A stretch of 32,000 nt of DNA, from the NCBI GenBank assembly GCA_048983575.1, contig JBLZTD010000001.1:2562005-2594004 (forward strand), written 5' to 3'. Source of the DNA: Thalassobaculum sp. (lineage in GTDB: Bacteria > Pseudomonadota > Alphaproteobacteria > Thalassobaculales > Thalassobaculaceae). A model generated the notes under the pieces. That model worked only from the letters and a program-made list of their open reading frames with translations, was not told the origin of the DNA and made no database searches. The position numbers were made by a program, and so were the translations under genes. Positions 8,450 to 27,108 of this stretch are shown in pieces (within the stretch, counting starts at the first letter, position 1; each line of letters starts with the position of its first letter).

Positions 8450-10248
8450 TCAGGCCGACTTCTTAAGAGCGGCGGGCTGCTCCAGGATATCCGGACCCAG
8501 ATCGACGGCCGCGTCGTATTGCGAGAGGTAGATCTTCCCGGTCAGATCGTCGATGAAGTGCGTCCGCAGCAGCCGGTCCATGACCGGTCCCTTCACCTCG
8601 GAGAGGTGGAACCGAATCCCCAGGAGGTCCAGGCGGTGATTGATCGCCTCCAGGGATTCCAGCGCGCTGCTGTCGATCTCGTTGACCGCCGAGCACATCA
8701 GAATGACATGCTTCAGTTGCCGGTCGCCGGCCGCCCGGTCGTAGATGTAATCCTCGAGAGACCGGGCGTTCGCGAAGTAGAGACTTCTCGTCTACCCGCA
8801 GGGTGAAGACGGTCGGCACCGTCTGGACGGCGTGGCGCCGGATGTTCCGGAAGTGCTGGGTGCTTCGGGACCAGACCGACTTCGGCGATGTGGGGGCGCG
8901 AGGTCTTGAAGAGGAACAGGAGGATCGATAATGCGACCCCGGCGGAAACCCCGGCTTCGACTCCGAGGCCGAGGGTGACGGCGATGGTCGCGGCGGCCGC
9001 GGCGAAGTCGGTCTTGGAATATCCCCAGGTGCGTTTGAGGACCGTGAAGTCGACCAGGGACAGAACGGCGACGATGATCGTGGCGGCGAGCGTCGCCTTC
9101 GGCAGGTCGTGCAGCAGCGGGGTCAGGGCGAAGGCGGCGAGACAGATGCCGACCGCCGTGAAGGCGCCCGCCGCCGGTGTTTCCGCGCCGGCGTCGAAAT
9201 TGACGACCGAGCGGGCGAAGCCCCCGGTGACGGGATATCCGCCGGTGACCGAGGCCGCCACGTTGGCGGCGCCCAGGCCGATGAGTTCCTGATCCGGGGC
9301 AATCCGCTGGCGTTTCTTGGCGGCAAGGGTCTGGGCGACGGAGACGGACTCGACAAATCCGATGACCGAGATCAGCACCGCCGAGCCGAGCAGGCTGGTC
9401 CACAGATCCATGTCGAAAACCGGGATCGTGAGCGGCGGCAGGCCTTGCGGTACGGTCCCGACGATGGCCACGCCGACGGAGTCCAGGTCGAGAATCCGCG
9501 TCGCCAGGATCGTCGCCGCGACGGCGGCGACCGGGCCGGCCCTGGCCAGCAGATCGGCCATCCGGCCGCCGATCCCCATACGGATCAGCAAGGGCTTCAG
9601 ACCTTTGCGGACCCAGAACAGAAACGCCGTCGCGGCGGCGCCGATTGCCAGGGTGACGGGGTTCGTCTCCGACAGATGGGTGACCAGCGACCTCGCCAGC
9701 TCGTACAGATTGTGGCCCGAGGCGTCGATGCCGAGGATGTGCTTGAGCTGGCTGGTCGCGATGATGATACCGGAGGCGGTGATGAATCCGGCGATCACCG
9801 GATGGCTGAGAAAGTTCGCCAGAAAGCCGAGCCTCAGGGCTCCCATCGCCAGAAGAATGAGACCCGACAGCAGGGCGAGCACGATGGCTGCCGCGGCGTA
9901 GTCCGCCGGGTTGGTGAGCCCGAGATTTCCGATTGCGGCCGCGGTCATGAGCGAGACGACCGCCACCGGCCCGACCGCCAGGGCGCGGCTGGTCCCGAAC
10001 ACCGCGTAGGCGACCAGCGGCAGGATTGAGGCATAGAGCCCCATCTCGGCCGGGAGGCCTGCGAGCAGCGCATAGGCCAGAGACTGCGGGATCAGCATGA
10101 TGGTGACGATCACCGCCGCCATCAGGTCGCTGGCCAGCGTGTCCCGGTCGTAGCGCGCCCCCCAGTCGAGGATCGGCAGGTATCTGGCGAGCGGTCGCGC
10201 GGCGGGGGGCGCCGCTCCCGCCGGCATCTGGGTCTGAGGGTCGGACAT
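8450..10248 (-). pseudogene. SulP-family anion transporter with C-terminal STAS domain, frame-disrupted (2 sites)
   Basis: ORF 8713..10248 carries the membrane domain. The family-typical continuation ...STQHFRNIRRHAVQTVPTVFTLRVDE / SLYFANARSLEDYIYDRAAGDRQLKHVILMCSAVNEIDSSALESLE... (STAS) is split across three frames. The frame jumps lie at about 8864 and about 8786. The 1799-nt span minus 2 nt gives 599 codons. Confidence 0.85.
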
Positions 10249-10275
10249 GCCGTTTCGGCTTTCGCTCTGGTGTCG

Positions 10276-11975
10276 TCAGGCGCCAGTGGGGCCGGCGCTC
10301 ACCTTCTCGGGCTTGGCCAGCCATTCGCGGCCGCGCAGCATGGCCCGCCAGTAGATCGGCGGCAGAAACCGCTCCTTCAGCAGCCATGCCAATCGGCTCG
10401 GCCTGCGTCCCGTCGATCAGCCAGCCCGGGAAACTCGGCAGCAGCTTTGCCGCCATAGCCGAATTCGGCCAGAACGATCTTGCCCCGCTCCACGGTCAGC
10501 GGGCAGGAGCCGTAGCCGTCGTAGTGCGCCATGCCTGCGCCTTCCCGGCCATGTCGGCCACCACGTTTTCGGCGACGATCGGCGCCTGCTTGCGGGCGGC
10601 GGCGGCGGTCTTGGCGTTCGGCGCGTTCATCACGTCGCCGAGGCTCCAGACGTTGGCGTACGTCCTTATGGCGCAGGGTCTCCTGGTCGACATCGACCCA
10701 GCCCGCAGCATCGGCGAGCGGGGAGACCCGCACGAAATCGGGTGCCGTCTGCGGCGGGCAGACATGGATCATGTCGAAGCCGACCTCCACCGTCTCCGGC
10801 GCCTTGTCCGGTTTGGTCGACCTCGAACCAGGCTTTCTTCGCCGGGCCGTCGATCGCTGTCAGATCGGTGGAATGAAGTTGAGCTCGCGCATCGTAACGC
10901 TCGACATACTCCATCAGGGCCGGGACGTACTCCTTCACCCCGAACAGCACGCCGCCGGCGTTGTAGAAGCCGACATCGATGTCCCTGAGCCGGCCGGTGC
11001 GGCGCCAATGATCGGCCGACAAGATACATCGCCTTTTGCGGTGCGCCGGCGCATTTGATCGGCATCGGCGGCTGGGTGAACACCGCTTTGCCGCTCCTCA
11101 ACCCCTGCACCAGGTCCCAGGTATAGGGCGCGAGGTCATAGCGGTAATTTGACGTCACGCCGTTGCGTGCCGAGCGTGTCGACGAGGCCGTCGACCCCAT
11201 GCCAGTCCAGCTTCAGACCCGGGCAGACGATCAGGCGCTTGTACTTGACGACCCGGCAGCCATCGAGAATGACGGCGTCGGCCTTGGGTTCGAACGCGGC
11301 CACCGCGGATTTGATCCAGCGCACACCCTGCGGGATCAGCGAGGCCATGGTCTTGGCGGTTTCGTCCGCTTCGAAGATGCCGCCGCCGACCATGGTCCAG
11401 CCCGGCTGATAATAGTGCACGTCCGCCGGATCGATGATCGCGACGTCCAGGCTCGGCACGCGGGCGATCAGGCTCGCGGCGACAGAAATTCCGGCGGCCC
11501 CGCCGCCGACGATGACGACGTCGTGGGAGGCGTCGCCGGTTTCCGTCGGCGTGCGGCCGCCGTTGGCGATGCGCCGTACGACACCCGCCATGTCGTAGCC
11601 CGCCGCCTTGGTGCGGGCCAGGATGTCCGGCAGCGGCCGAGTGCCGGCTTCCGAAAGCGCCCATAGAGTGGCGGAGCGGGTCCCCGTGCGGCAATAGGCC
11701 AGCACCGGCTTCGGCAGTTCGGCGAGAACCTTGCCGAATTCGGCGGCATCCTCGTCCCGCACCATCCCCGAGGTCACCGGCTGGTACCGAGCTTCCATAC
11801 CGGCCGCCGCCGCCGCCTTCTGGATCTCCTCGAATGTCGGCTGATCGGCGCCTTCCCCGTCGGGGCGGTTGCAGATGACCGCCCGGAATCCTGCCGCCGC
11901 GGCCTCGGCCATGTCGGCGGGGGAGACCTGCGGGCGGACCGTGAGCCCGTCGGTGAGCTTTCTGTTCTCTTCCAT
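10276..11975 (-). pseudogene. DUF442/TIGR01244 (PTP-fold sulfurtransferase-like) domain fused to an FAD-dependent sulfide:quinone-oxidoreductase-like flavoprotein, frame-disrupted (7 sites)
   Basis: Starts at the ATG at 11975 (SD GGAGG upstream), inside ORF 11136..12923. Contains CRTGTRS and the FAD motif VVIVGGGAAG. The canonical SQR-like sequence can be followed through ORFs 10769..11200, 10666..11022, 10377..10790, 10496..10765 and 8792..10456 to the stop at 10276. Frame jumps lie at about 11168, 11020, 10815, 10661, 10533, 10445 and 10407. Confidence 0.8.
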
Positions 11976-12019
11976 ACCGAGATCCTCCCTGGATTCTTTT
12001 CGCGGGTACCCGCCGATCT

Positions 12020-12908
12020 TCAGAGCGCGTTGACCGGCAGTTTGAGGAAGGTCCGGCCGTCCCTGTCGGGCGGGGGCAACTGGCCGGCCCGCATGTTCAC
12101 CTGAAGCGACGGCAGGATGAGCGCGCGGCATGTCCAGGGTCGCGTCGCGCGCTTCCCGCATGGCGACGAACTCGTCGCGGGTCTTGCCGCCGCCGACATG
12201 GATGTTATGGGCCTTCTCGTCCCGGACCGTGGTCTCCCACCGGATCTCCCGGCCGTTGGGGCCGTAGTCGTGGCACATGAACAGCCGCATATCGTCGGGC
12301 AGGGCCAGGACCTTCTGGATCGAGTCGTACAGGGTTCCGGCATCGCCCCCGGGGAAATCGGCCCGTGCGCTGCCGCCGTCGGGCATGAACAGCGTGTCGC
12401 CGACAAAGGCGGCGTCACCGATCACATGGGTCATGCAGGCCGGCGTGTGGCCGGGCGTGTGCATTGCGAAGCCTGTCATGCCGCCGATCCGGTACGTGTC
12501 ACCGTCGTCGAACAGCCGGTCGAACTGGCTCCCGTCCCGCTGGAATTCGGTGCCCTCGTTGAACACCTTGCCGAAGGTCTCCTGGACCACCGTGATGTTG
12601 CGGCCGATGCCGAGCTTGCCGCCGAGGGCCTGCTGGATATACGGCGCCGCGGACAGATGGTCGGCATGGACATGGGTCTCGATCAGCCACTCGACCGTCA
12701 GGCCCTTGTCCCTCACATAGGCGATGATGGCGTCGGCGTGATCGTAGGTGATCCGGCCGGCCGCGTAGTCAATGTCCATTACCGAGTCGATGACGGCGCA
12801 GGCGCTGGACGCCGGGTCCTTCACGACATAGCTGATCGTATTGGTGGCCTCGTCGAAGAAGGCCTCGATCTCCGGTCTGGTGGACATGTCGATGGGATTG
12901 TCGGTCAT
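12020..12908 (-). pseudogene. MBL-fold persulfide-dioxygenase-like hydrolase (Blh/PDO type), one frame disruption
   Basis: N-terminal part of ORF 11136..12923. I prefer the ATG at 12908 because GGAGGAA lies 6 nt upstream. The metal motif is HVHADH. After ...DATLDMPR the family-typical tail LILPSLQVNMRAGQLPPPDRDGRTFLKLPVNAL continues in the frame of ORF 12020..12418. The jump lies at about 12122 in a gcgcgcg run. Confidence 0.8.
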
Positions 12909-12930
12909 CGGGTGTTCCTCCATTTGGTCG

Positions 12931-13396
12931 TTATCTGGTGGCTTGGGGCCCGGGCTCCGATTGGGCGGCGGACGGGCCGGTGCCGCTCGGTTTGGGAAGC
13001 ATGCGGGCGGCCAGGATGCCGGCGACGACGGCGGCCACGAACGCCGCCATCTCGATGCGCCCTGTTCCCAGGGCCGGCAGCGCGCCGCCCGGGCAGAAGC
13101 CGGCGATCCCCCAGCCGATGCCGAAGATCGCCGCGCCCGAGATCAGTCTCGTGTCCAGATCCCGCCGGGTCGGAACCTGGAACGTCTCGGCCAGGACGGG
13201 GGCCGGACGGCGAAGGACCAAGCGGTAGCCGAGGGCGGTGACCGCCAGCGCGCCGCCCATCACGAAGATCAGGCTCGGATCCCAGGTGCCGGCGACATCG
13301 AAGAAATTCAGCACCTTGGCGGGGTTCGCCATGCCGGAGATGACGATGCCAAGTCCGAAGACGAGACCGATCAGGTAGGCGGTGAGGACTTCGCAT
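12931..13396 (-). pseudogene. DUF6691 / YeeE-YedE-like sulfur-transport membrane protein (second half-transporter), start region frame-disrupted
   Basis: ORF 12931..13332 has GIAGFCPGGALPALG. The expected first TM helix (EVLTAYLIGLVFGLGIVISG) is in frame upstream of Met-13332, but the only ATG (13396) is offset by one base (ATG-c-GAA...). The alternative is an intact shorter CDS at 12931..13332. Confidence 0.6.
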
Positions 13397-13398
13397 GA

Positions 13399-13830
13399 TC
13401 AGCCTCCGATGCCGTGCCGAATGACGAAGACGGTCGTCGCGGTGGTCGCCATGAACACCAGCGTCGCCGCAATCGACCGGGGCGAGAGTCGGGCCATGCC
13501 GCAGACCCCATGGCCGGAGGTGCAGCCGTTGCCCAGGGACGCGCCGAAACCGACGATCACGCCGCCGACGATCAGGTAGGTCAGCGAGACGGGAACGGTG
13601 ATCTCGGGGAGGGCGCCGGTTGCCAGAAGCATGACCGTCGGCGCGCTCGCCATGCCGGCAACCATCGCCGCCCGCCATACCCATTCCTGAAATCCGGAGG
13701 GCAGCACGATCCCCGACAGAATTCCTGTCGCGCCGGCGATCCGGCCGTGCAGCGCCATGAGAAGGACCGCCGCCAGCCCGATCAGAAGGCCGCCTGCGAG
13801 TGACGCGAAGGGGGTGAAAGTGGTTTCCAT
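13399..13830 (-). CDS. YeeE/YedE-family sulfur-compound transport membrane protein
   Basis: 143-aa ORF with SD GGAG upstream. It carries the conserved Cys-containing motif GNGCTSGHGVCGMARLS. Confidence 0.85.
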   Translation of the reverse strand: METTFTPFASLAGGLLIGLAAVLLMALHGRIAGATGILSGIVLPSGFQEWVWRAAMVAGMASAPTVMLLATGALPEITVPVSLTYLIVGGVIVGFGASLGNGCTSGHGVCGMARLSPRSIAATLVFMATTATTVFVIRHGIGG

Positions 13831-13890
13831 GCAGCAAGCTCCACGTCTACGGAAATGGCGTATGTAATATGATCCACCAATCCGCCGGAC

Positions 13891-13915
13891 CCGTCGGTGA
13901 CAAAGTCACCAACGG
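13891..13915. promoter_or_regulatory. 25-bp near-perfect palindrome CCGTCGGTGAC-AAA-GTCACCAACGG (operator candidate, copy 1)
   Basis: Read directly, with 10/11 complementary arm positions. Its centre lies 73 nt upstream of the YeeE start codon in the 101-nt gap after the peroxiredoxin gene. The core is shared with 15987-16009. Confidence 0.5.
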
Positions 13916-13931
13916 GCCGCGATGCGGGCGG

Positions 13932-14570
13932 TCAGCCGAGCATCCGGGTCGAGAAGTACCAGTCGGTCGTCTTATAGCCCTCTGACGCCCGGGCTTCGGC
14001 AGCGGCGGCGGTCGCGGGCGGCGGGACAATGACCGCCTCGCCCGGCTGCCAGGCTTCCGGAGTCGCGACCTTGTTGGCGTCGGACGTCTGAAGCGCCTGG
14101 ATCAGCCGATAGAACTCGTCGATCGAGCGTCCGTTCGTCATCGGATAGTAGACCATCGCCCGCAGGATGCCGTCGGGGTCGATCACGAAGGTGGCGCGGA
14201 CCGCCGACGTATCCGAGGCCCCCGGCTGGATCATGCCGTAGGCCTTGGCGACCTCCATCGACAGGTCGGCGATGATCGGGAAGGGGATCTCGACGCCGAA
14301 ATTGTCCTTGATGTTGCGCATCCAGGCGATGTGGGCGTAGTGGCTGTCGATCGAGAGCCCGAGAAGATCGCAGTTGAGTTTGGCGAAGTCGTCGGCCCGG
14401 CGGGCGAAGGCCATGAACTCCGTCGTGCAGACCGGGGTGAAGTCGGCCGGATGCGAGAACAGGATGAGCCACTTGCCGCGGTAGTCGGCGAGCCGGCGCC
14501 GACCGTCGGTGGTCGGGGCGTCGAACGCCGGAGCGGGTTCGTTCAGCCGGGGGAATTGAATCTCGGTCAT
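13932..14570 (-). CDS. 1-Cys peroxiredoxin (Prx6-like)
   Basis: 212-aa ORF. The peroxidatic motif is FTPVCTTE, followed by LLGLSIDSHYAHIAW. No resolving-Cys motif is evident. Confidence 0.9.
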   Translation of the reverse strand: MTEIQFPRLNEPAPAFDAPTTDGRRRLADYRGKWLILFSHPADFTPVCTTEFMAFARRADDFAKLNCDLLGLSIDSHYAHIAWMRNIKDNFGVEIPFPIIADLSMEVAKAYGMIQPGASDTSAVRATFVIDPDGILRAMVYYPMTNGRSIDEFYRLIQALQTSDANKVATPEAWQPGEAVIVPPPATAAAAEARASEGYKTTDWYFSTRMLG

Positions 14571-14619
14571 GGAATGGATCCTTTCTTTGGTAGTGGGACT
14601 CGGGAAGGAGCGGGAGCGG

Positions 14620-15222
14620 CTACTCGCTTCTGACGAACATCTTTTCCCGGTTGAGCGTGTATCCCCACGGCAGGCCGCTGTTCTTCCAGCCGTCCTTCAG
14701 GCGCCAGGGCCCGTTGGGGTGGTCCTTCAGGGCGCCGCCCTCGAAGCCGTCGACGACGACGTAAACACGCTCGAACCCTCGACCCTCCAGGGCCTTGGCG
14801 GAAGGCGCCCCGCGGGATCCGCCGGAGCGGCACATCAGAATGACCGGTGCCGACTTGTCGAGACCCTGTGCGGCGAGGGCCGCATCGATGGCATCTGCGA
14901 AGCCCGGGTTGCGCTCCATCAGGAACACAGATTTCTTCGCGTTCCAGGCCCCCGGATTGGAGAGCAGGAAGGGGATGTTGACGTCGACCACGTCCGTGAA
15001 TCCGGTGAACATGATCTCGATCGGATCGGGGACGTCGACGAACAGCACCTTGCTGCCTTCGGCCGTCTTCATGTCGTGGGCTTCCTTGGCCGTGAGGTAC
15101 AGGCCCCAGGGCGTCTGCTTGGCCGGATCGCTCGGGGCGTCGGCCGCATGGGCGGGAAGGGGTCCGAGCGTCAGGGCGCAGGCCATGGCGCCGGCCAGAA
15201 CCGCTCTTCGTAACGTGGTCAT
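14620..15222 (-). CDS. Rhodanese-domain sulfurtransferase with N-terminal signal peptide (periplasmic)
   Basis: 200-aa ORF with SD GAGGAGG upstream. The signal-like N-terminus is MTTLRRAVLAGAMACALTLGPLPAHA. The active-site loop is CRSGGSR. Confidence 0.85.
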   Translation of the reverse strand: MTTLRRAVLAGAMACALTLGPLPAHAADAPSDPAKQTPWGLYLTAKEAHDMKTAEGSKVLFVDVPDPIEIMFTGFTDVVDVNIPFLLSNPGAWNAKKSVFLMERNPGFADAIDAALAAQGLDKSAPVILMCRSGGSRGAPSAKALEGRGFERVYVVVDGFEGGALKDHPNGPWRLKDGWKNSGLPWGYTLNREKMFVRSE

Positions 15223-15235
15223 CGGTCGTGCCTCC

Positions 15236-15691
15236 TCAGAAACTCAGGACCCGGGTGTCGTCGTCCATCAACCGGGCAGCCATCGCCGGCGGTTTGGCGA
15301 CGGTCACGCCGTCGATCAGGGCGCCGGCCCCGACTCCCCGGTTCGGCAGATAGAGGGCGCAGACCTGCACCGATGTGCCGTGGGCCTGCATGATTTTCTT
15401 CATCAGTCCCTGCGGGCTCATGTCCTTGGGGGCCTGGGGGGCCGTCGCCGACGCGGGGGCCTCCTTGAGGGCGATGTCCCCGCCGGGGCCGCACAGCAGG
15501 ATGTGGCCCTTGGCCCCCTGTTGCACCGCCTGCATCGTCAGCACCATTGCCATCAGCTGGGTCTGCGGATCCGGCGACGTGACGACGGTCACCAGCGCCT
15601 TGTCGTCCCCGGCCAGGGCGGCGGAAGCGCCCATCACACCGGTAATGGCAAGTAGGGCAGAGGCGGCGATCGTGTTGCGAAGAAATCGCAT
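15236..15691 (-). CDS. DsrE/DsrF-like family protein with signal peptide
   Basis: 151-aa ORF with SD GGAG upstream. The signal-like N-terminus ends AALAG. It has the DsrE-like layout with conserved Cys residues (ILLCGPGG, VCALYLP). The family call is from memory. Confidence 0.65.
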   Translation of the reverse strand: MRFLRNTIAASALLAITGVMGASAALAGDDKALVTVVTSPDPQTQLMAMVLTMQAVQQGAKGHILLCGPGGDIALKEAPASATAPQAPKDMSPQGLMKKIMQAHGTSVQVCALYLPNRGVGAGALIDGVTVAKPPAMAARLMDDDTRVLSF

Positions 15692-15716
15692 GGCGAACTC
15701 CTGTCTGAGAGAGGTT

Positions 15717-15929
15717 TCAGATCCGGCAGGTATTCATGCCGAGCAGCCGATAGAGCGGGCAGAATCTCAGGCCGGCGGTCAGGACGAGAACGGCGCCGAC
15801 GACCGGGACGCCGAAACGGGCCACAGGCATGTCCCAGAGGGCGAATTCGGTGACGAAAGGCAGGGCGATGAGCGCCACGCCCAGAACCAAGCGGGCGATG
15901 CGGTCGAAATTTCCGACGTTTGCAGTCAT
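15717..15929 (-). CDS. DUF2892 (YgaP-like) small membrane protein
   Basis: C-terminal part of ORF 15717..16007. The ATG at 15929 has GGAGAA upstream. Family-typical features are NFDRIARLVLG... and the C-terminal RFCPLYRLLGMNTC. The longer ORF start would translate the palindrome at 15987-16009. Confidence 0.75.
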   Translation of the reverse strand: MTANVGNFDRIARLVLGVALIALPFVTEFALWDMPVARFGVPVVGAVLVLTAGLRFCPLYRLLGMNTCRI

Positions 15930-15986
15930 GGCGGCTTCTCCGGGTGCTTCGTTGAACACCCGTACCTTGGCGGTTTGCCGCGAGGA

Positions 15987-16009
15987 CGTCGGTGACATTG
16001 TCACCAAGG
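15987..16009. promoter_or_regulatory. Palindrome CGTCGGTGAC-ATT-GTCACCAAGG (operator candidate, copy 2)
   Basis: Shares CGTCGGTGAC-N3-GTCACCAA with 13891-13915. Its centre lies 69 nt upstream of the DUF2892 start and about 60 nt downstream of the Crp/Fnr gene stop. Confidence 0.5.
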
Positions 16010-16067
16010 CTATGGCAATGCGGAAAGACCGTCCGTACCCCAGCCGGGGCGTCGGTGGGACCTTAGG

Positions 16068-16724
16068 CTAGGCGGCGGCGAAGGCCTCGAGCGCGCCCTG
16101 GTCGCGCACCGTGATCCGTCCCCGCGCCGCGGCGATCCACCCGCGCCGCTGAAACTCCTGAAGCTGGCGCGAGACCACTTCCCGTGCGGTGCCGAGCTCC
16201 GTCGCAAGTTGGTGATGCGTGAGCTGAATGTCGCCTTTGTCGCTCTCAAGTTCGAGGAGCTTCTGTGCCAGGCGGATATCCACCCGCTGGAAGGCGATCT
16301 CCTCGATCACCATGAAGAGATCGGTGATGCGCTTCGAATAGGCGGTAAAGACGAAACTCCGGAACACGCTCGAGCGGACGATCATGTCCTCGAAGACGTT
16401 GCGGGGAATGGCGGCCGCGGAGACATCGGTTTCGGCGATGCCTTCGGCACTGTAGTCCTCGTAGGCCAGGAGGCAGGCCGTCGTCAGGACGCAGCTTTCA
16501 TGGGCATGGACCCGGTACAGAACGATCTCGCGTCCGGACTCGGAGACCTGTTGAACCCGGACGACGCCCGACAGGAGAAGTAACAGGTTTTCCGGCGCCT
16601 TTCCCGGTCCGAAGATCACGGTGCCGGCCGGTACCGTGACGATCCGGCTGCGTTCCGTCAGGGTTTTCCGGAGATCCGCATCCAGCCGCGAGAGCCCGGG
16701 AAACTGGTCGATCCAATCAGACAA
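16068..16724 (-). CDS. Crp/Fnr-family transcriptional regulator (cNMP-binding-like domain + C-terminal HTH)
   Basis: 218-aa ORF with a TTG start preceded by GGGGAGGG with a 7-nt spacer. The C-terminal HTH is LTHHQLATELGTAREVVSRQLQEFQRRGWI. It has no FNR-type N-terminal Cys cluster. Confidence 0.88.
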   Translation of the reverse strand: MSDWIDQFPGLSRLDADLRKTLTERSRIVTVPAGTVIFGPGKAPENLLLLLSGVVRVQQVSESGREIVLYRVHAHESCVLTTACLLAYEDYSAEGIAETDVSAAAIPRNVFEDMIVRSSVFRSFVFTAYSKRITDLFMVIEEIAFQRVDIRLAQKLLELESDKGDIQLTHHQLATELGTAREVVSRQLQEFQRRGWIAAARGRITVRDQGALEAFAAA

Positions 16725-17101: not shown

Positions 17102-18151
17102 TCAGCAGATACGCGGAAGCTGTTCGCCGCTGAGCATGTCGATCATCCGATCGATTCCGAGCGCTCCCCGACATCTGACCTGGCCGGCCGGCCCGTCCTG
17201 CACCCTTCCGATGACGACGGAGTCCCGCGAGACATCAAACCGGCGCAGCTCGTCCAAAGCGTGGTCCGCGTCATTCGGAGCGACAAAGGCGATGAAGCGT
17301 GCCTCGTTCGCAACATGCAGCGGGTCGAGGCCGAGCAGCTCACACGCCGCGGATACCTGGGAACTGACCGGGACAAGGGCCTCATCGATGGCCATAGCCA
17401 GCTTTGCCGTTTCGGCGATCTCGACCAGGGCGCTCGCCAGCCCGCCCCGGGTCAGGTCGCGCAGGCAATGGAGTCCGATCCCCGCTTCGACCATCGCCGA
17501 TACGGGGGCGTTGACCGCGGCACAGTCGCTTTCGATTGCCGGCTCGAACCCGAAGCCTTCCCGGGCCGCCATGACCGCCATCCCGTGCCGGCCGATATCG
17601 CCGCTGAGAATGATCGCGTCGCCGTCGCGCACGGCCTCCGGGCCGATCCGGCCCTCGGTGATGACCCGGCCAATCCCCGACGTGTTTACGAACATGCCGT
17701 CCGCCTTGCCGCGATCGACCACCTTGGTGTCGCCGGTCACCAGCCGGACCCCGGCGGCTCTCGCCGCATCGCGCATGGAGACCGCAACCCGGCGCAGGGT
17801 TTCGAGCGGCAAGCCTTCCTCCAGGATCAGGCCGACGCTCAGATACAGCGGGCGGGCGCCGCACATGGCGAGATCGTTGACCGTCCCGTTGACCGCGAGC
17901 GTCCCGATGTCCCCGCCGGGAAAGAACAGCGGCTCCACCACATAGCTGTCGGTCGTGAACGCGAGCGGTCCGTCGAGATCGAGTGTGGCGCCGTCGTGGC
18001 GCCGGCCCAATTCGGGATCGTCGAAGATCGGCAGCAGGATCGAGTCGAGCAGATGCGCCATGCGTCGGCCGCCGCCGCCATGGGCGAGCTGGACCGTATC
18101 GGTCGTGTTGACCGGTAGGGGACACACCACGCCGCCGCTTCCGTCGCCCAT
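17102..18151 (-). CDS. hypE: Hydrogenase maturation protein HypE
   Basis: ORF 17102..18157 (TTG). I prefer the ATG at 18151, which lies 2 nt after the hypD stop. It has an AIR-synthase-like fold sequence and the diagnostic C-terminal PRIC. Confidence 0.92.
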   Translation of the reverse strand: MGDGSGGVVCPLPVNTTDTVQLAHGGGGRRMAHLLDSILLPIFDDPELGRRHDGATLDLDGPLAFTTDSYVVEPLFFPGGDIGTLAVNGTVNDLAMCGARPLYLSVGLILEEGLPLETLRRVAVSMRDAARAAGVRLVTGDTKVVDRGKADGMFVNTSGIGRVITEGRIGPEAVRDGDAIILSGDIGRHGMAVMAAREGFGFEPAIESDCAAVNAPVSAMVEAGIGLHCLRDLTRGGLASALVEIAETAKLAMAIDEALVPVSSQVSAACELLGLDPLHVANEARFIAFVAPNDADHALDELRRFDVSRDSVVIGRVQDGPAGQVRCRGALGIDRMIDMLSGEQLPRIC

Positions 18152-18153
18152 CG

Positions 18154-19260
18154 TCAAGATAAGGCCGCCCGCATGTCGGCCCGGCGGTACCGATGATAGG
18201 CGGCGCAGGCACCCTCGGACGACACCATGGTCACGCCGAGCGGATGCTCCGGTGTGCAGCGGGTCCCGAAAGCCGGGCAGTCGGTGGGTTTGCTGTCACC
18301 GCGCAACACCGCTCCGCTGATGCAGTCACCGTCCGGGGCATTGTCGGTCAGGACCGCGCCGAACCGGTTCTCGGCGTCCAGTTCTGCATAGGCGTCGGCG
18401 AGGCCCAATCCGCTCTCGGGGATGTCACCCAGCCCGCGCCACGAACGCGGCACGACGCGGAACACCTGGCGCATGATCTCCAGCGCGGCCGGGTTGCCGT
18501 CGGCGCGCACTGCCCGGGCGTATTGGTTCTCGACCACGCTTTGCCCCGACTCCAACTGCCGCAGACAGAGATAGATGCCTTCGAGAATGTCGAGAGGCTC
18601 GAACCCGGTCACCACGATCGGTACCTGGTAGCGGCGGGCGATCGGCTCGTACTCGCGGGTTCCCATGATGGTGCAGACATGACCGGCTGCCAGGAATCCG
18701 TCGATCCGTCTGCCGGGTCCGTCGAGCACGGCTCGCAGCGCCGGGGGGACGAGCACATGCGATGTCAGCATGGAGAAGTTGGCCAGACCGGCGCGCCGGG
18801 CCCGGTAGGCCGCCATGGCGTTGGCCGGCGCCGTCGTCTCGAAGCCGACCGCAAAGAAAACGACCTCCCGATCGGGATGGGTCGCCGCCAGGTCGACCGC
18901 GTCGAGCGGCGAGTACACGGCGCGGACATCGGCCCCCCGGGACTTGGCCGCGAACAGGTCGTCGCGGCTTCCGGGTACGCGCAGCATGTCACCGAACGAG
19001 CACAGGATGACATTCGGGAGCCCGGCGATCTCGATCGCCTTGTCGACGAATTCGACCGGCGTCACGCAGACCGGGCAGCCGGGTCCGTGAATCAGCTCGA
19101 GCCCGTCCGGCAGCAACCCGTCGATCCCGAAGCGCAGGATCGCATGGGTCTGGCCGCCGCAGACTTCCATGATCGTCCAGGGGCGGGTCGCCGTCCGGGC
19201 GATCGCCTCGGCCAGAGTGCGGGCGGCGCCGGCATCGCGATACTCGTCGCGGAACTTCAT
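18154..19260 (-). CDS. hypD: Hydrogenase maturation protein HypD
   Basis: Starts at MKFRDEY (ATG 19260) inside ORF 18154..19611. Motifs are [10 protein letters not shown] and [10 protein letters not shown]. It overlaps the hypC stop by 4 nt. Confidence 0.92.
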
Positions 19261-19511
19261 GACGTCCTCGCTTCGCCGCGTACCAGGTCGTCGATCTCGC
19301 GCAGGTGCTCGAACATCCGCATCGCCTCCGCCTCGTCGATCACCGAGATCGCGAAACCGACATGGACCAGCACGTGGTCGCCGACCGTCGCCTCGGGCAC
19401 GTAGGCCAGGTTGATCGTCTTGGTGACGCCGCCGAAATCGACGCGCCCCGTGCGCATCAGCGGGTCGTCCCCCTCGATGTCGAGGATCCGGCCGGGGACG
19501 GCTAGACACAT
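19257..19511 (-). CDS. hypC: Hydrogenase maturation chaperone HypC
   Basis: 84-aa reading from MCLAVPGRI (N-terminal Cys2 motif) inside ORF 19257..20210. It overlaps the hypF stop by 10 nt. Confidence 0.9.
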
Positions 19512-21826
19512 GACCGCTCCTCCCGCGTTTCCATCCAGGTTGCCCAGGCCGCCTGTCCCACCGCCAGACCGCCGTCGTTGGGCGGAAGTTCCCGGTGCCA
19601 GAGCGGCGCAAATCCAGCGGACTGGAGCGCGTCGACGGCGGTCTCCGTCAGCCGCACGTTCTGGAAGCATCCTCCGGTCAACACGACCTTCGGCTCTCCG
19701 ATGCGCCGGGCGACCGTCACGACCGATCCGGCCAGACCGTGATGCAGGGCGGCGGCGATCTCGGCGACCGGGCGTCCGCACCGGAGATCGGCGACGATCA
19801 GGTCGAGGGCCGGGTGCCAGTCGATTTCGAGCCCCGGCGCGCCGTCGGTGTCCCTCACCGGGAACGGATAGGCGGCGGAGAAGGGCAAAGATCCTGCCGC
19901 TGCTTCCAGGGCGGTGGCTGCCTGACCCTCGTGTCCCGACCGCAGACCGAGGCCGCACAGGGCCGCGATCCCGTCGAACAGTCGGCCGACACTGGAGGTG
20001 AGGGGGGCGTTGAAGCCACGGGCGATCGCTCTGCCGATCACCGCCCGCTCGATCGGATCGAAGTCCGCGACGGGGAGCAGATCGTCCATCGTCAGCCAGC
20101 CATCCCCATAAGCCGCCTGGAGCAGCCCGATGGCGGACCGGCGTGGTTCGCGGATGGCCGCATCGCCTCCGGGAAGGCGGAACGGTCGGAGCCGGGCGAC
20201 GCGCTGCCATCCGGTCCGGTCGAGCCGCAACGCTTCCCCGCCCCAGACGGTGCCGTCCGGCCCATATCCCGAGCCGTCCCAGGCGAAGCCCAGAGCGGGC
20301 GGCGCGGACCCATGTTCCGCCAGACAGGCGGCGATGTGGGCCACGTGATGCTGGACGACGGTGACCGGCAGGCCGCTCCTCTCCGCCGCAGTACTCGACG
20401 GATAGTCGGGGTGCGGGTCGCGGACGGCCAACCTTGGCGCGACGGCGTGCAGTCGGGATATGTCCGCCACAGCGTCCCCGTGCGCCCGCCGACCGTCGGC
20501 GGTCTCGAGATCGCCGATATGCGGGCTGCAGAGGATGCCGTCCGTCGTTGTCAGGGCCACCGTGGTCTTCAGATGGCCGCCATAGGCCAGGATGCCGCCC
20601 GCAGGATGCTTCAGCGGTGCCGCGAGCAGACCATACCCGCGCCCGCGTCGCAGAACCTGCAGACCGTCGCAGACCACCTGCACCACGGAATCCTCGATGG
20701 GCCGGACGATCGGGCGGTTGTGGGTGAGAAACAGGTCGGCGACCCCCGACAACCGCTTGAGAGCGGCGGCATCGTCGCGGACAATGGGCTCACCGCCTCG
20801 GTTGCCGCTGGTCGCGACCAGCGGGAAACCCAGGTCCTGCAGCAGAAGATGATGCAGCGGCGAATATGGCAGCAGGGCGCCGAGACGCGGATTGCCCGGC
20901 GCCACGGAAGGCGCCAGCGCCGCTCCGGCTTTCGGCAGCAGCAGGATCGGGCGTGCCGGGCTGGTCAACGCCGCCTCGGCGAGGGCATCCAGACGGCAGT
21001 GCCGACCCACCGTCGCGAGGTCTGGGAACAACACGGCGAACGGCTTCGTTTCACGATCCTTTCCGTCGCGCAGTCGCCGGACGGCCCAGTCGTTCCGCGC
21101 GTCCGTCATGAGGTGAAAGCCGCCAACACCCTTCACCGCGACGATCTGTCCGTGCCGCAACGCCGCCGCGGCTTCCCGCAGCGCATCGTCTCCCCGAGGC
21201 CGCATGTCGCCGGATGACGCGAGCAGCGACAGTTCGGGGCCGCAGGCCGCGCATGCGGTCGGTTCGGCATGAAAACGCCGGCTGCCGGGATCTCCGTACT
21301 CCGCCGAGCAGGCCGGGCAGAGGGCGAACGCCCGCATGGCGGTCCGCGCCCGGTCGTACGGGAGGTCTTCGATGATGCTGTAGCGAGGACCGCAGTCGGT
21401 ACAGTTGATGAAGGGATAGCGATGGCGTCGGTCCGCGGGGTCGGCCATTTCCGCGAGGCATGTGGGGCAGGGGGCCAGATCGGCGAGAACGTGTGCGGCG
21501 CGGTCGCGGCCCGCCATGCTCCGGTGGATCTCGAAATCGGCCGCGTCTTCCAGCGCGACGGCTTCGGCCGTTATCTCGATGATCCGGGCGTTGGCGGGGG
21601 GACGGTGCCGGAGGGCCTGTTCAAACGCTGTCAGTTCCGCCGTATCGCCTTCGGCTTCGATCAGCACGGCGTCAGACTCGTTGCGTACCCAGCCGGTGAG
21701 GCCCCGTTCCGTCGCCATGCGCCAGACGAAGGGCCGGAAGCCGACCCCCTGGACCACCCCGCGGATGCGCAACCGCCACCGCTCGCGGCTGGGGCGACAA
21801 ACGGCCTGGGAGGCGATCGGCGTCAT
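19502..21826 (-). CDS. hypF: Carbamoyltransferase HypF
   Basis: 774-aa ORF. It has an acylphosphatase-like N-terminus ([17 protein letters not shown]), two CxxC...CxxC zinc fingers (CPTCLAEM...CTDCGPRYS; CPACSAEY...CAACGPELS), and YrdC- and Kae1-like regions. Confidence 0.92.
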
Positions 21827-21831
21827 CGTCG

Positions 21832-22095
21832 TCAGGTCTCCACCTCGACGCTCTCGATCACGACATCCTGCGCGTTCGCATGGTGGATGTCGTCCGAGAG
21901 CGTGATGTCGAGGGCAGCCCCCTCGGCGATGGTACCGGCCGCCGCTTCCCGAAAGTGCTCGACGAAGTGGGTTTCGGACATGTGACTGAGCGCACCGAGC
22001 CAGACCTTGACGCCGACCACGCGGCTGGCGTTCTCGGCACTGGCAAGGCGCTCGATCTGGGCCATCATGGCTGCGATCAGAGAAGCCTCATGCAC
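21832..22095 (-). CDS. hypA: HypA-like nickel metallochaperone, short form lacking the CxxC-CxxC zinc domain
   Basis: 87-aa ORF with a GTG start. The N-terminal MHE nickel-binding motif is present (MHEASLI...). There are no cysteines anywhere in the protein. It sits between the endopeptidase gene and hypF. Confidence 0.7.
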   Translation of the reverse strand: MHEASLIAAMMAQIERLASAENASRVVGVKVWLGALSHMSETHFVEHFREAAAGTIAEGAALDITLSDDIHHANAQDVVIESVEVET

Positions 22096-22583
22096 GGCGC
22101 GCGTCCTCCGTCTCCGATGCGGCCAACACCTCCCGCCGTATGCGGTCGCAAACCTCGCCGACGGCGGCGGTCACAGGCGGCGAGACCGGCCGGCCTGCGT
22201 CGAAGGACTGGCCGTCGATGGCGTAGACGACGCAACGCGACGGCAGCCGGCCGAGGACCCGGCCCAGCTCGATCGCCTCGGCCAGACCGAACCCGTGACT
22301 TGACAGGGTGAACGCATCCTGCGGTAGCGGCGCGGCGGCGACGTCGAAGCGATGCACCGTGCCGGCGGGAGCCGTCGAGGCGCAGGCATCCACGAGCCAG
22401 GCGGCCGACGCGTCTTCCAGGTGGCTCAGCAGCGACGTTGCTTCGCCGCCGTGCTCGACGACCTGGACATGCAAGGGCAGCGTGCCGAGGAGTTGCCGGG
22501 CGACCGCCCGTCCCGGCGCCGTCGTCGCCGCGATCGGGATTGCCGATACCGATGACGCGTAACACGGATGTCGCAGCGGCCAT
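22088..22583 (-). pseudogene. [NiFe]-hydrogenase maturation endopeptidase (HoxW/HycI-like), one frame disruption
   Basis: The N-terminus LRVIGIGNPDRGDDGAG lies in the frame of ORF 22077..22592. The continuation RAVARQLLGTLPLHVQVVEHGGEATSLL... lies in the frame of ORF 22088..22474. The jump is at about 22511 (gccggg-a-cgggcg). The 496-nt span minus 1 nt gives 165 codons. Confidence 0.75.
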
Positions 22584-22588
22584 GCTCC

Positions 22589-23881
22589 TCACCCCCGGTC
22601 CATGTCGAGCTTGAGGAAATGCGTCGCGCAGGAGATGCAGGGATCGTAGTTCCGCACCGTCTGCTCGCAGCGGTGGCGCAAAGCCTCGTCCGGGAGATCC
22701 AGAAATCCGCCGACGAAGCTCGCAAGATCCTCCTCGATGGTCGCCTGGTTCTGCGAGGTGGGCGGCACGATCTGGGCCTCGGCGATGGCGCCGTCCTCCT
22801 CCAGGCGGTAGCGGTGATAGAGCAGGCCGCGCGGCGCTTCGGTCGCCGCGAACCCGGTTCCGGCCCTCGGCTCGATCTCGATGGCGGGGCGGTCCGGTTG
22901 CTCGTACGCGTCGATGATCCGAAGCGCCTCCTCGCAGGCCTGCAGGATCTCGATCGCCCGAACGACGATGCTGCGGTACGGGTTGCGGCAGGTTTCGGCC
23001 AAGCCGGCCTCTCTGGCGGCGGCTTGTGCCGGCGCCGACAGCCGGTCGAAGTTCAGGCTGTAGCGCGCCAGCGGACCGACCAGATAGGCGGAGCCGTCGT
23101 CCCGCATTCGCGCGTGCAAAGCCGTCGACCGCTCCACATGCAGCTCCTCGAAATGGGCGTCATAGTCATTCGCCTCGATGTCGAGGCCTCGGTTGGAGAC
23201 GATCCGCCCCTCGTTGAACGGGTATTCGTCGTCGTGGCGAAGGGCGACGAAGTCGTAGTCGCGCTCCCGGTCGGGGAAGTTGAACCCGGCGACCCAGCGC
23301 ACCGTCTCCAACGCCGCATCGCGCGCGGATTTCATGCGGTCGGCCAGAGCGGCGAGATCCCGCCGCCGGGGCGCCTTGTAGAAGCCGCCGACACGGACGT
23401 TGATCGGGTGGATCTCGCGTCCGCCGATCAGCGACAGAATCTCGTTCCCGGCCTTCTTCAGATCCAGGCCCCGGCGGACGATATCGCCATGGTCCTTCGC
23501 CATGTCGACCGCTCCGTCGTAGCCGAGGAAGTCGGGCGCGTGGAGCATGTAGACATGGAGTGCGTGGCTCTCGATCCATTCGCCGCAGTACAGCAGCCGG
23601 CGCAGCTCCCGGATCGGACCGTCGACGGTGACGCCGAGTGCGTTCTCCATCGCGTGTACCGCGCTCATCTGATAGGCGACCGGGCAGATGCCGCAGATCC
23701 GGGCGGTGATGTCGGGCGCCTCGGTGAAGGCCCGGCCGCGCAGGAACGCCTCGAAGAAGCGTGGCGGCTCGAAGATGTTGAGTTCCGTCGATTGGACCTG
23801 CCCGTCGCGCACCACAACCTTGAACGCGCCTTCACCTTCCACCCGAGCGAGGTAGTCGACCTTGATCGTCTTACGGGCCAT
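22589..23881 (-). CDS. [NiFe]-hydrogenase large (alpha) subunit, group 3b-like
   Basis: 430-aa ORF. Motifs are RVEGEG, the N-terminal [10 protein letters not shown] and the C-terminal DPCISCATH followed by a short cleavable tail (FLKLDMDRG). Its small size and AsrA/AsrB-like partner subunits fit the group 3b (sulfhydrogenase/NADP-coupled) type. Confidence 0.92.
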
Positions 23882-24654
23882 GGCGCTCGCTCTCGTCGCT
23901 GAAGTCGGGGGCCCCCGCGTTGAAGGTCCGGTAGAACCGTTGAAGCGCCGGGGCCTCCATGCCGAGATCCGTCAACGCCTCGCTCAGCGCCGGTGCATTC
24001 GCTGAATTCCTTCGGTCCGTAGCAGCCGTAGCAGCCGCGGTCGTAGGCCGGGCAGATGGCGCCGCAGCCGGCATGGGTCACCGGACCCAGGCACGGTGTG
24101 CCGTGCGCCACCATCACGCAGACATGGCCCGCGAGCTTGCATTCCAGGCACACGGCGTGAGCCGGCGTGACCGGGCGACGGCCCGCCAGATAGGCGGTGA
24201 TGACTTCCAGCAGCTGATACTTCGAGATGGGGCAGCCACGCAGTTCGAAATCGACCGGGATATGTGCCGCGATGGGGGTCGAGGTCGCCAGCGTCTCGAT
24301 GTAGTCCGGCCGGGCGTAGACGACCGATGTGTACTCCTCGACATCGGCGAAATTGCGCAATGCCTGGATGCCGCCCGCCGTCGCGCAGGCGCCGATGGTG
24401 ATGAGCGTGCGGGAGCGGCGCCGTACCTCTTGGATCCGCTCGGCATCGTGCGCCGTGGTGATCGACCCTTCGACCAGCGAGACGTCATACCGTCCCGTCG
24501 CGGCCGCGCGCTTGGCTTCGGGAAAATACGCGATGTCGATGGCACCGGCGATCGCGAGCAACTCGTCCTCGCAATCGAGAACGCTCAATTGGCAGCCGTC
24601 GCAGGAAGCGAACTTCCAGACGGCCAGGCGCGGCTTGCGGGCTGTGCGCGCCAT
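23871..24654 (-). pseudogene. [NiFe]-hydrogenase small (delta) subunit, one frame disruption near the C-terminus
   Basis: Starts at [24 protein letters not shown] (ATG 24654) inside ORF 23665..24753. After ...[11 protein letters not shown] the sequence continues as [32 protein letters not shown]...HGP in the frame of ORF 23871..24074. The jump is at about 24003. The stop overlaps the large-subunit start by 11 nt. Confidence 0.8.
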
Positions 24655-24655
24655 T

Positions 24656-25516
24656 TCAGAGTTCCTTGCGGCCGAGCATGGCGCGGATCCGGTCAAAGCT
24701 GAAGACCGGGCCGTCGCGGCAGACGACGACCGTTCCGAACTGGCAATGCCCACATAGGCCGATCGCGCATTTCATGTTGCGCTCCATCGAGAGGAAAATG
24801 GCCTTTTCGTCGAGCCCCGCGTTCCGCAGAGCGTTGACCGCGAACCGCATCATCACTTCCGGGCCGCAGATAAACGCTGTCGTCCGTGACGGGTCGGGTG
24901 TGGCGCGGGCCAGCAGCGTCGTCACCACGCCCACATGCCCGTCCCAGGTCTTCGTCGCGTGGTCCACGGTCACCTGGACGTCCAGATCCAGCCGGCGGCG
25001 CCACGACTGCAGCTCCCGATGGAACAGGATGTCGTCGGGGCTGCGCGTTCCGTAAATCAGCGTGAGCGTGCCATAGCGGTGGCGTTCGGCCAACAGTCGG
25101 TAGAGTGCGGGTCGCAGCGGCGCGAGACCGAGGCCGCCGGCGATCAGGAGAATGTCGCGACCGGTGATTTCCTCGACAGGCCAACCGGTGCCGAACGGCC
25201 CCCGGATTCCGACCGGGGCGCCCGGACGCAGATCGGCCAACGCGGCGGAGACCGGTCCGACCGCGCGGACCGTATGGAGCAGACGCCCGCCGTCGGCCGG
25301 GTCACCGCTGACGCTGATCGGCACTTCGCCGACGCCGAAGACGGTCAGCATGTTGAATTGACCGGGGGCGAACGGCGCGATGCCGCCGTCCTCCGTCCGC
25401 AGGTCGAGAGTCCATACCCCAGGCCCGTCGCGCCGCCGGCGCCGAACGCGCGCGATCAGCGGGAGCATCGGGTCGCGGACCTGTCCGCTCGCGTCAGTCG
25501 GAAGCGCCATAGACAT
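24656..25516 (-). CDS. Hydrogenase gamma subunit: FAD/NAD(P)-binding ferredoxin-reductase-type protein with C-terminal 2Fe-2S motif (AsrB/PyrK-like)
   Basis: 286-aa ORF. It has a flavin/NAD-binding layout ([14 protein letters not shown]) and a C-terminal Cys cluster, [10 protein letters not shown]...CRDGPVF. The start could be 25516 or 25510. Confidence 0.85.
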
Positions 25517-25955
25517 CCATGATCTGCATGCGGGTCGCCTGCAGTCGGTCGACGAGGATCGGCAGGAAGCGTTTCATCATGTCGTATCCGAGGGCGGGAT
25601 CGTCATCGCACTTGCCGCGCAGACAGGTCGCGTCCATGGCGATGGCCCGGACGAGGTCGAGCGCGCGGGCGTCGTACGCCCAGCGGTACGGTGGAATGAG
25701 CCAGGAGACGCCGACGATCTCGCCCTCGCTCACGGTCTGGAAGGTGAGGGGGCCGCGGCCCGGCATTTCGACCTCCAGCGCAACGCGACCGTGCCTCAAC
25801 AGATAAAACTGATTTGCGTCCCCGCCTTCCTGGAACAGGTACTGCCCGGGGTCGAACCGGACGTTCCTCGCGCAGCCCGACACGATCTGGCAGTACCCGG
25901 CGTCGAGCCCGGCAAAGAACGGATGCTCGCTGACGAACCGTTCCAACCCTTCCAT
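25494..25955 (-). CDS. Stand-alone cyclic-nucleotide-binding-domain protein (no DNA-binding domain) encoded within the hydrogenase operon
   Basis: Starts at [14 protein letters not shown] (ATG 25955, SD GGAGG 8 nt upstream) inside ORF 25494..26165. It has the cNMP-binding beta-barrel signature ([31 protein letters not shown]). It is 153 aa, and its 3' end overlaps the gamma-subunit start by 17-23 nt. Confidence 0.8.
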
Positions 25956-25986
25956 CTCGTGCCTCCGTCCCGGCGCAGTTCGGCGC

Positions 25987-27108
<1,122 letters not shown>

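Follow-up and report, generated by a model that had tools for sequence, protein, structure and literature searches.

In Cupriavidus pinatubonensis JMP134, and also in Acinetobacter baumannii, the fisR-pdo-sqr genes couple a type II persulfide dioxygenase (PDO) to a type II sulfide:quinone oxidoreductase (SQR) whose N-terminus carries DUF442, a rhodanese-like domain with an active-site cysteine (PMC9163753); the DUF442-SQR fusion of C. pinatubonensis has been studied biochemically (PMC9163753), and expression of that operon depends on FisR, an activator of the sigma-54 type (PMC13467558). The bigR operon of Xylella and Agrobacterium, the SqrR regulon of Rhodobacter capsulatus, and ygaVP of Escherichia coli respond to sulfide and bring together an MBL sulfur dioxygenase, a DUF442 sulfurtransferase, YeeE-like membrane proteins, or a YgaP-type membrane segment; their switch is a sensor whose two cysteines become linked by polysulfide bridges (PMC5823870; PMC13467558). 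In Staphylococcus aureus, a single dedicated thiol-based sensor, CstR, governs the cst genes (tauE-cstA-cstB-sqr), which supply an SQR, a persulfide dioxygenase, sulfurtransferases, and an exporter of anions. At present, three main sensor families account for the sulfide-oxidation genes of heterotrophic bacteria, and a review of August 2026 names only these, the CsoR (CstR), ArsR (SqrR/BigR), and Fis/sigma-54 (FisR) sensors, together with some MarR-type and global regulators (PMC13467558). Here, we explored a ten-gene cluster in a 32,000-nucleotide stretch, the window, of the Thalassobaculum sp. genome under study (G000, contig C1, 2562005-2594004; about 67% GC), which we consider likely to be a sulfide/persulfide-oxidation regulon controlled by a neighbouring Crp/Fnr-type regulator. 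The enzymes themselves are of ordinary, known kinds, and it is the regulator that is the interesting part.

The Thalassobaculum cluster has the enzyme pair of C. pinatubonensis and would follow the logic of the cst genes, but it departs from each of these systems in other respects. In place of FisR, a sigma-54 enhancer-binding activator, it has a Crp/Fnr-family protein with a palindrome of its own, and to the content of the C. pinatubonensis operon it adds a SulP-STAS transporter, a split YeeE, DUF2892, a DsrE-fold protein and a rhodanese (both predicted to be exported), and a 1-Cys peroxiredoxin (Prx). The sensors of the bigR, SqrR, and ygaVP units are ArsR-family repressors; furthermore, DUF442 is fused to the PDO in Blh but to SQR here, and YgaP has its own rhodanese domain, whereas DUF2892 stands alone here. 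The cst system relies on a CsoR-family repressor as its sensor, on a type III PDO fused to a rhodanese, and on TauE rather than SulP for export. As a first-pass annotation made from the sequence alone had it, the Crp/Fnr protein is the only regulator of the cluster: no ArsR, CsoR, or sigma-54 activator domain was found in the ten proteins or beside the cluster (the rest of the genome was not searched for ArsR-type SqrR/BigR proteins). The same annotation regarded as unusual the joining of the SQR/PDO pair with two predicted periplasmic sulfur carriers, the embedded peroxiredoxin, and the Crp/Fnr protein as sole regulator. What is new is the regulator; the pairing of PDO with DUF442-SQR has already been characterised in C. 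pinatubonensis (PMC9163753). Its suggestion of an undescribed regulatory arrangement has been strengthened, given the conserved operator found in addition: a full-text literature search, with most subscription journals outside its coverage so that absence is not proof, returned no paper linking a Crp/Fnr regulator to sqr/pdo, and the regulator-operator pair appears to be undescribed.

A dedicated Crp/Fnr-family dimer seems to read the palindrome TCnGTGACwwwGTCACnGA, and the coupling of this regulator to this operator is well supported by genome comparison. The sequence GGTGAC-N3-GTCACC lies at window positions 15991-16005 and 13896-13910 (operators 1 and 2), and the extended consensus is a 19-bp palindrome in which even the flanking bases beyond the search pattern are conserved (T, 79%; C, 60%). 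Exact GTGAC-N3-GTCAC occurs 3 times in the 4.79-Mb genome, where about 5 copies are expected by chance, and 2 of the 3 are in the cluster; the third (C1:687908), which has a GC spacer and falls inside a Zn-alcohol-dehydrogenase open reading frame (ORF), was rejected as an operator. When the genome was ranked with a position weight matrix trained solely on other genomes, operator 2 came first (27.9 bits) and operator 1 second (27.5 bits). The next site (C1:3394120, 24 bits) was rejected as a one-base variant of a 21-mer, GTCGGTGAATTTGTCTCTAAA, which is repeated, also as its complement, at least 9 times in C1 (e.g., at 139986, 966101, 1457203, 2191081, 2342531, 2457945, 3394120, 4375570, and 4450365). 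This 21-mer, one variant of which mimics the operator, is maybe the end of an insertion sequence or an element resembling repetitive extragenic palindromes.

Conservation of the palindrome was followed in 80 loci from named genomes anchored on the DsrE-like gene, in 20 loci fetched with the regulator as anchor (orthologue cut-off E<=1e-30) from 300 genomes drawn evenly across the class, and in 3 reference relatives, G020 (91% identity) and, from the same genus, G008 (84%) and G004 (80%). Allowing at most 1 mismatch, the palindrome stands beside the crp orthologue, within about 170 nt, in all 20 Crp-anchored loci, and it is also present in nearly all DsrE-anchored loci that have crp. Its position relative to genes is equally constant, the centre lying 58-80 nt from the DUF2892 ATG in 22 of 24 loci and 50-60 nt from a divergent Prx start in 9 of 10; the DsrE-like gene has a site no more than 250 nt upstream in 12 of the 80 loci, against about 1.4 expected. 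Operator 2 is kept in G008, G020, and G004, the position of operator 1 is conserved in relatives, and no gene follows the operator as regularly as DUF2892. No operator-like site precedes crp, even with 3 mismatches allowed, which makes it unlikely that crp is autoregulated by way of this motif here.

The regulator is a member of the Crp/Fnr superfamily. It matches Pfam cNMP_binding (7.8e-14) and HTH_Crp_2 (4e-17), and its AlphaFold2 (AF2) model (pLDDT 90) has the expected Crp/Fnr elements (N-terminal cNMP-binding-type beta-roll, long dimerisation helix, C-terminal winged helix-turn-helix), with all of the top 50 fold matches listed belonging to this family. Proteins of the FNR subgroup, which sense O2, ligate a [4Fe-4S] cluster through an N-terminal cysteine cluster and a central cysteine, whereas CRP, the cAMP receptor, has a phosphate-binding cassette with Arg-Ser/Thr-Ala and a TGTGA-N6-TCACA site. 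The present regulator fits neither subgroup. Both of its cysteines are in the beta-roll helix and none is N-terminal, the NCBIfam Fnr model gives 17.9 bits against a cut-off of 228, and the site is GTGAC-N3-GTCAC in contrast to the TTGAT-N4-ATCAA box of the FNR subgroup; as for CRP, the score is 38 bits against a cut-off of 266, the cassette Arg appears to be replaced, and N5 instead of N6 separates the core half-sites. None of the NCBIfam Crp/Fnr equivalogs comes close to its cut-off. Neither is the protein of the CstR/CsoR, SqrR-BigR/ArsR, or FisR type, its other matches being only to MarR_2 and Rrf2 winged-helix models, below cut-off.

The regulator has no cysteines other than the C-x5-C pair of C78 and C84 (...E-S-C-V-L-T-T-A-C...). 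All 38 orthologues share C78, and 36 of them share C84, the 2 exceptions being the most divergent orthologues, without a PDO/SQR neighbour. In an alignment of 37 sequences, C78, T81, C84, and Y91 are invariant, and so are the residues E-L-x-x-A-R-E-V-x-x-R of the recognition helix, which reads ELGTAREVVSR here; an A-R-E start of the recognition helix suits a GTGA half-site, as in CRP. Residues 79-87 form a short helix between beta-roll strands 66-73 and 94-97 in the AF2 model, and this helix is predicted to sit at the position of the phosphate-binding cassette of cNMP-binding domains, the cassette Arg being matched, in a manual alignment by eye rather than a structure superposition, by the invariant Tyr91. 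The closest solved structure, PDB 3DV8, an uncharacterised Crp/Fnr-family protein from Eubacterium rectale (E 2e-27; Foldseek E 9e-19), has a C-x5-C pair at the aligned position, although the identity is only 29%, and neither a function nor a DNA site is known for 3DV8.

The regulator keeps company with sulfur genes across the class. An orthologue is encoded in 22 of the 300 evenly drawn genomes, and among the 20 Crp-anchored loci, which come from different families, PDO lies beside crp in 12, mostly together with DUF442-SQR and SulP, and DUF2892 in 14; in one locus without PDO, a rhodanese, a TehA/SLAC1-type anion channel, and an ArsC/low-molecular-weight-phosphatase-like gene surround the site. 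Within 10 kb of the DsrE-like anchor, a Crp orthologue (41-92% identity) is found in 17 of 80 loci and PDO in 14, and in many of the DsrE-anchored loci, including one from a Pseudomonadales metagenome-assembled genome (MAG), the Crp orthologue adjoins PDO, DUF442-SQR, SulP, and YeeE. No other regulator gene is consistently present in either set of loci. The identical ten-gene order recurs in G008, a Thalassobaculaceae MAG, and G004 has a seven-gene version that lacks DsrE-like protein, rhodanese, and Prx and contains both palindromes. The gene-neighbourhood check proposed in the first-pass annotation, carried out with both anchors, thus bears out the association of the Crp/Fnr gene with those downstream of it.

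Further layouts were encountered. Some are co-directional, e.g., DsrE-Prx-Crp-DUF2892-PDO-SQR-SulP; another, seen in Rhodobacterales and in one MAG each of Ferrovibrio and Pseudomonadales, is divergent, with Prx...DsrE-rhodanese on one strand and Crp-DUF2892-YeeE-DUF6691-PDO-SQR-SulP on the other. In L071 (6719-10967), the only divergent locus that is annotated, the genes running one way from the palindrome encode 1-Cys Prx, cytochrome bd subunits I and II, a DUF2474-like small ORF, the DsrE-like protein, and rhodanese, and the same gap of about 2.7 kb separates Prx from the DsrE-like gene in several other, unannotated divergent loci.

Beyond the class, a regulator match (E<=1e-25) was obtained in 115 of 400 genomes of a phylum sample that is uneven and dominated by one small-genome family of another class. 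In 6 loci of that family, the C-x5-C pair and the recognition helix are present in all 6, the palindrome (at most 1 mismatch) lies beside crp in 5, and DUF2892 is next in 4. The minimal conserved unit thus looks like regulator, operator, and DUF2892, an arrangement that recalls ygaV-ygaP of E. coli. In L114, L115, L120, L121, and L122 of the other class, Crp, palindrome, and DUF2892 stand alone, their neighbours being unrelated, such as radical SAM, fatty-acid hydroxylase, and AI-2E transporter genes.

In the window, the ten genes occupy the minus strand between 16724 and 8450, with gaps in transcription order of 138, 25, 13, 49, 101, 2, 7, 44, and 27 nt. Together with the two operators, they are as follows (lengths in amino acids, aa).

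16068..16724, minus strand, Crp/Fnr-family regulator, 218 aa, TTG start (Pfam HTH_Crp_2 and cNMP_binding)
15989..16007, minus strand, operator 1, palindrome core GGTGAC-AAT-GTCACC, centre 69 nt upstream of the DUF2892 ATG
15717..15929 (ORF 15717-16007), minus strand, DUF2892/YgaP-like two-helix membrane protein, about 70 aa (Pfam YgaP-like_TM)
15236..15691, minus strand, DsrE-fold protein, 151 aa, signal-like N-terminus (without Pfam match; assigned by fold search)
14620..15222, minus strand, single-domain rhodanese, 200 aa, signal-like N-terminus (Pfam Rhodanese)
13932..14570, minus strand, 1-Cys peroxiredoxin, cytoplasmic, 212 aa, PVCTTE motif (Pfam AhpC-TSA and 1-cysPrx_C)
13894..13912, minus strand, operator 2, palindrome core GGTGAC-TTT-GTCACC, centre 73 nt upstream of the YeeE ATG
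13399..13830, minus strand, YeeE/YedE-type half transporter, 143 aa, GCTSGHGVCG motif (Pfam Sulf_transp, C-terminal half of the profile)
12931..13396, minus strand, DUF6691 half transporter, the second YeeE-like half, frame broken (Pfam DUF6691)
12020..12923, minus strand, type II persulfide dioxygenase, HVHADH motif, frame broken (Pfam Lactamase_B, MBL fold)
10276..11975, minus strand, DUF442 (CRTGTRS loop) fused to type II SQR, frame broken (Pfam BLH_phosphatase and Pyr_redox_2)
8450..10248, minus strand, SulP-family anion transporter with C-terminal STAS, frame broken (Pfam Sulfate_transp and STAS, in separate frames)

The gene number, strand, order, and spacing (2-138 nt) match those of the first-pass annotation, and its family calls all survive database comparison, with no ORF reassigned; the DsrE-like protein, however, is confirmed by fold only and not by Pfam, and four genes are not intact frames as deposited. 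What changes is the picture of a single cluster headed by crp. The regulator is indeed co-conserved with the downstream genes, but because palindromes precede DUF2892 and YeeE and none precedes crp, the cluster probably comprises three transcription units rather than one operon: these would be crp alone, DUF2892-DsrE-rhodanese-Prx, and YeeE-DUF6691-PDO-SQR-SulP. A promoter and terminator scan returned nothing exceeding shuffled expectation. The start of DUF2892 is probably the ATG at 15929, giving 70 aa: a GGAG ribosome-binding site lies ahead of it, the TTG start of the 96-aa ORF (16007) falls within the operator palindrome, and the Pfam YgaP-like_TM match begins at residue 27 of that ORF. 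The protein has C-terminal cysteines in CPLY...TC.

As to the surroundings of the cluster, a hyp/hydrogenase block upstream of crp (window 17102-27200) is absent at the matching place in the congeneric G008, where the cluster adjoins a homologue of window 27236-29584, so that hydrogenase adjacency is not conserved. At the right end of the window (30001-32000), GC falls from about 66% to 42-58%.

The enzymes can be assigned with the help of intact orthologues. Residues 151-546 of the SQR orthologue match human mitochondrial SQOR (E 1e-94), which identifies the enzyme as type II by its overall match; in view of this match, the assignment to a 'type III SQR, selenoprotein subtype' (NCBIfam, 188 bits against a cut-off of 525) was rejected. 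The N-terminal 140 residues match TIGR01244 (DUF442, above cut-off) and PDB 2f46 (5e-24), and the CRTGTRS loop of DUF442 (CxxGxR type) can be read directly in the window. The PDO orthologue is type II by its matches to PDB 9g8t, 4efz, and 4ysk (E 1e-105 to 1e-115); it also matches the sulfur dioxygenase half of NCBIfam Blh (392 bits), and its iron site, HVHADH (HxHxDH type), is again legible in the window. A second PDO-like MBL gene, with 77% DNA identity to that of the cluster, is located at C1:1341135-1342352; this paralogue (C1:1341459) stands by itself, surrounded by MFS, GGDEF, RTX, and ferrochelatase genes and without sulfur or regulator neighbours. Intact SulP-STAS orthologues of 598 aa match TIGR00815 above cut-off. 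The YeeE/TsuA thiosulfate transporter is a single protein of about 330 aa with two homologous halves, three relay cysteines, and YeeD/TusA as a partner; here, there are two separate half-size genes, one matching the C-terminal half of Sulf_transp and the other DUF6691, with cysteine motifs present, an NCBIfam TsuA score of 28 bits against a cut-off of 400, and no YeeD/TusA gene among the cluster genes.

The DsrE-like protein, rhodanese, and 1-Cys Prx constitute a movable accessory module. The 151-aa protein has no match in Pfam, the DsrE model included, and nothing usable in NCBIfam, but its AF2 model (pLDDT 86), in which the first 30 residues show no order, in keeping with a signal peptide, matches YchN, SSO1126, DsrEFH, and TusBCD in Foldseek with probability 1.0 and TM 0.66-0.79, along with DsrE/DsrF-like proteins. 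On the strength of this model, we place it in the DsrE/DsrF/TusD fold family, without equating its two cysteines with the active cysteines of DsrE/TusD. At least 1497 homologues (138-161 aa) are encoded mostly in marine Alphaproteobacteria (e.g., Thalassobaculaceae, Nisaea, Roseovarius, and Hyphomicrobiales), and they have a variable hydrophobic N-terminus and two invariant cysteines, C67 and C111, in LLCGP and VCAxYLP. Judged by eye, both the DsrE-fold protein (ending ALA|G) and the rhodanese (RR-containing) start with signal-like segments; the rhodanese, with a CRSGGSR active-site loop, accompanies the DsrE-like protein in 18 of the 80 DsrE-anchored loci. The 1-Cys Prx is above the cut-off of NCBIfam PRK13189 and is the first gene past the operator in divergent layouts; going by this placement, it is part of the regulon in both layouts, and its presence here is not accidental. 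Because G004 has the seven-gene version without the trio, the DsrE-rhodanese-Prx module is best seen as an insertion into an older arrangement of crp, DUF2892, and YeeE...SulP.

Combining these assignments with what is known of the respective families, we propose the following course of events. Type II SQR would oxidise H2S at the membrane, the fused DUF442 sulfurtransferase domain would handle the sulfane sulfur, and type II PDO would convert glutathione persulfide into sulfite; the resulting oxyanions probably leave the cell through SulP-STAS, and the split YeeE/DUF6691 pair may move a sulfur anion across the membrane, whereas sulfane sulfur in the periplasm would be the business of the exported DsrE-fold protein and rhodanese. 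The regulator could act as a class-II-type activator, which is compatible with the fixed, promoter-proximal position of the palindrome, and could be switched by modification of its two conserved cysteines, for example, by a C78-C84 polysulfide bridge on the helix that in CRP binds the cNMP phosphate. More broadly, and with somewhat less than an even chance of being right, this Crp/Fnr clade might represent a further structural class of dedicated reactive-sulfur sensor, in which the cNMP phosphate-binding helix has been rebuilt as a C-x5-C thiol switch, activation proceeds from a 19-bp palindrome, DUF2892 is the ancestral partner, and SQR, PDO, and periplasmic sulfur carriers have been recruited repeatedly, joined in at least one relative by the sulfide-insensitive cytochrome bd. 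The clade occurs in about 7% of the Alphaproteobacteria of an even sample, as well as in many further Pseudomonadota.

Several considerations weigh against a dedicated sulfide/persulfide regulon. Binding of the palindrome and control by the regulator are derived from comparison, and the sensed signal and the sign of regulation are inferred; telling an activator from a repressor would take a transcription start site. With GTGA-N5-TCAC, the half-sites lie one base closer together than in CRP and FNR sites (N6), an atypical spacing in this family. Neither SQR nor PDO was found near the six loci of the other class, and because the regulator there is paired only with DUF2892, its primary role may be broader than sulfide oxidation. 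Finally, cytochrome bd and Prx also suit an oxygen- or oxidant-responsive regulator. Alternatively, then, the Crp-type protein could control the cluster but sense oxygen limitation, peroxide, or thiol/disulfide stress, the sulfur genes being part of a respiratory-stress regulon. The L071 regulon with its cytochrome bd oxidase, the peroxiredoxin of several relatives, the pairing with DUF2892 only in the other class, and the fact that the two cysteines could equally form a plain disulfide all lend themselves to this alternative, which we nevertheless regard as unlikely: the regulator is without the N-terminal FNR cysteine cluster, the site is not an FNR box, and most of the associated genes (SQR, PDO, DUF442, rhodanese, DsrE-fold, YeeE) are sulfur-specific. 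Moreover, cytochrome bd is a sulfide-insensitive terminal oxidase and hence also suits a sulfide response.

The distal part of the cluster is not open as deposited. Relative to the three relatives, in which the genes are intact (PDO 295 aa, DUF442-SQR 562 aa, SulP-STAS 598 aa), the window has about 15 extra single bases of its own (at ~13389, 12122, ~11168, ~11022, ~10886, 10874, ~10865, 10817, 10662, two near 10533-10550, ~10448, ~10405, 8863, and 8786), whereas no window-specific single-base deletion was found against G020, G008, and G004. One extra base near 13385-13389, just past the ATG, breaks DUF6691 (by comparison with L013), that at 12122 shifts the last ~33 codons of PDO, about 11 affect DUF442-SQR, and those at 8863 and 8786 fall in the SulP-STAS linker. 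The deposited frame consequently merges PDO, DUF442, and the first 130 flavoprotein residues into a false 595-aa ORF, scatters the remainder of SQR over several frames, and puts STAS out of frame with the SulP membrane domain. As a separate observation, G020 (L009:2552-2857) is missing about 600 bp relative to the window, with YeeE and DUF6691 collapsed into a 101-aa hybrid ORF, which could result from recombination between the homologous halves or be a MAG assembly artefact.

In this situation, DUF6691, PDO, SQR, and SulP might be true pseudogenes, and the pathway dead in this strain. That some 15 frame-breaking insertions crowd into 4.9 kb, with none in the upstream 3.3 kb, would fit such decay, as would their density of about 3 per kb, compared with about 0.6 per kb in rpoBC, a disparity that also counts against our own explanation. 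Still, we hold decay to be very unlikely and the frame breaks to be almost certainly assembly consensus errors, judging from the makeup of the genome sequence: the essential rpoB and rpoC are likewise split, over 3 and 4 frames, respectively (C1:1799591-1807949), the assembly, of 2 contigs, has 80% marker completeness, and all four bases occur among the insertions, most of which lie outside homopolymers. Furthermore, the breaks are insertions only, without deletions or nonsense substitutions; each gene fragment is 85-97% identical to its intact relatives at the protein level; and substitutions relative to G020 amount to 14-20% at third codon positions against 2-6% at positions 1 and 2, implying purifying selection. 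The whole G000 assembly seems to carry indel errors, and any pseudogene in it needs read-level confirmation.

The least probable alternative is that a regulator with its gene elsewhere in the genome binds the palindromes, the neighbouring Crp-family protein playing no part. A 15-bp core spacing atypical of Crp/Fnr proteins would agree with this, but we hold it to be very unlikely given that the site accompanies crp in 20 of 20 loci of different families, that an invariant recognition helix (A-R-E-V-x-S-R) goes with an invariant GTGAC half-site, and that no other regulator gene recurs among the loci.

Regulons in genomes and metagenomes can already be predicted with the operator motif. If the proposed role of the regulator is correct, a widespread Crp/Fnr-type protein with its own operator would add a class to the known sensors, and three poorly understood families, those of DUF2892, of the exported DsrE-fold protein, and of 1-Cys Prx, would gain a testable physiological context. 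The switching on of SQR and PDO in many marine Alphaproteobacteria, the Roseobacter group among them, would likewise be explained, as would that of cytochrome bd in at least one relative.

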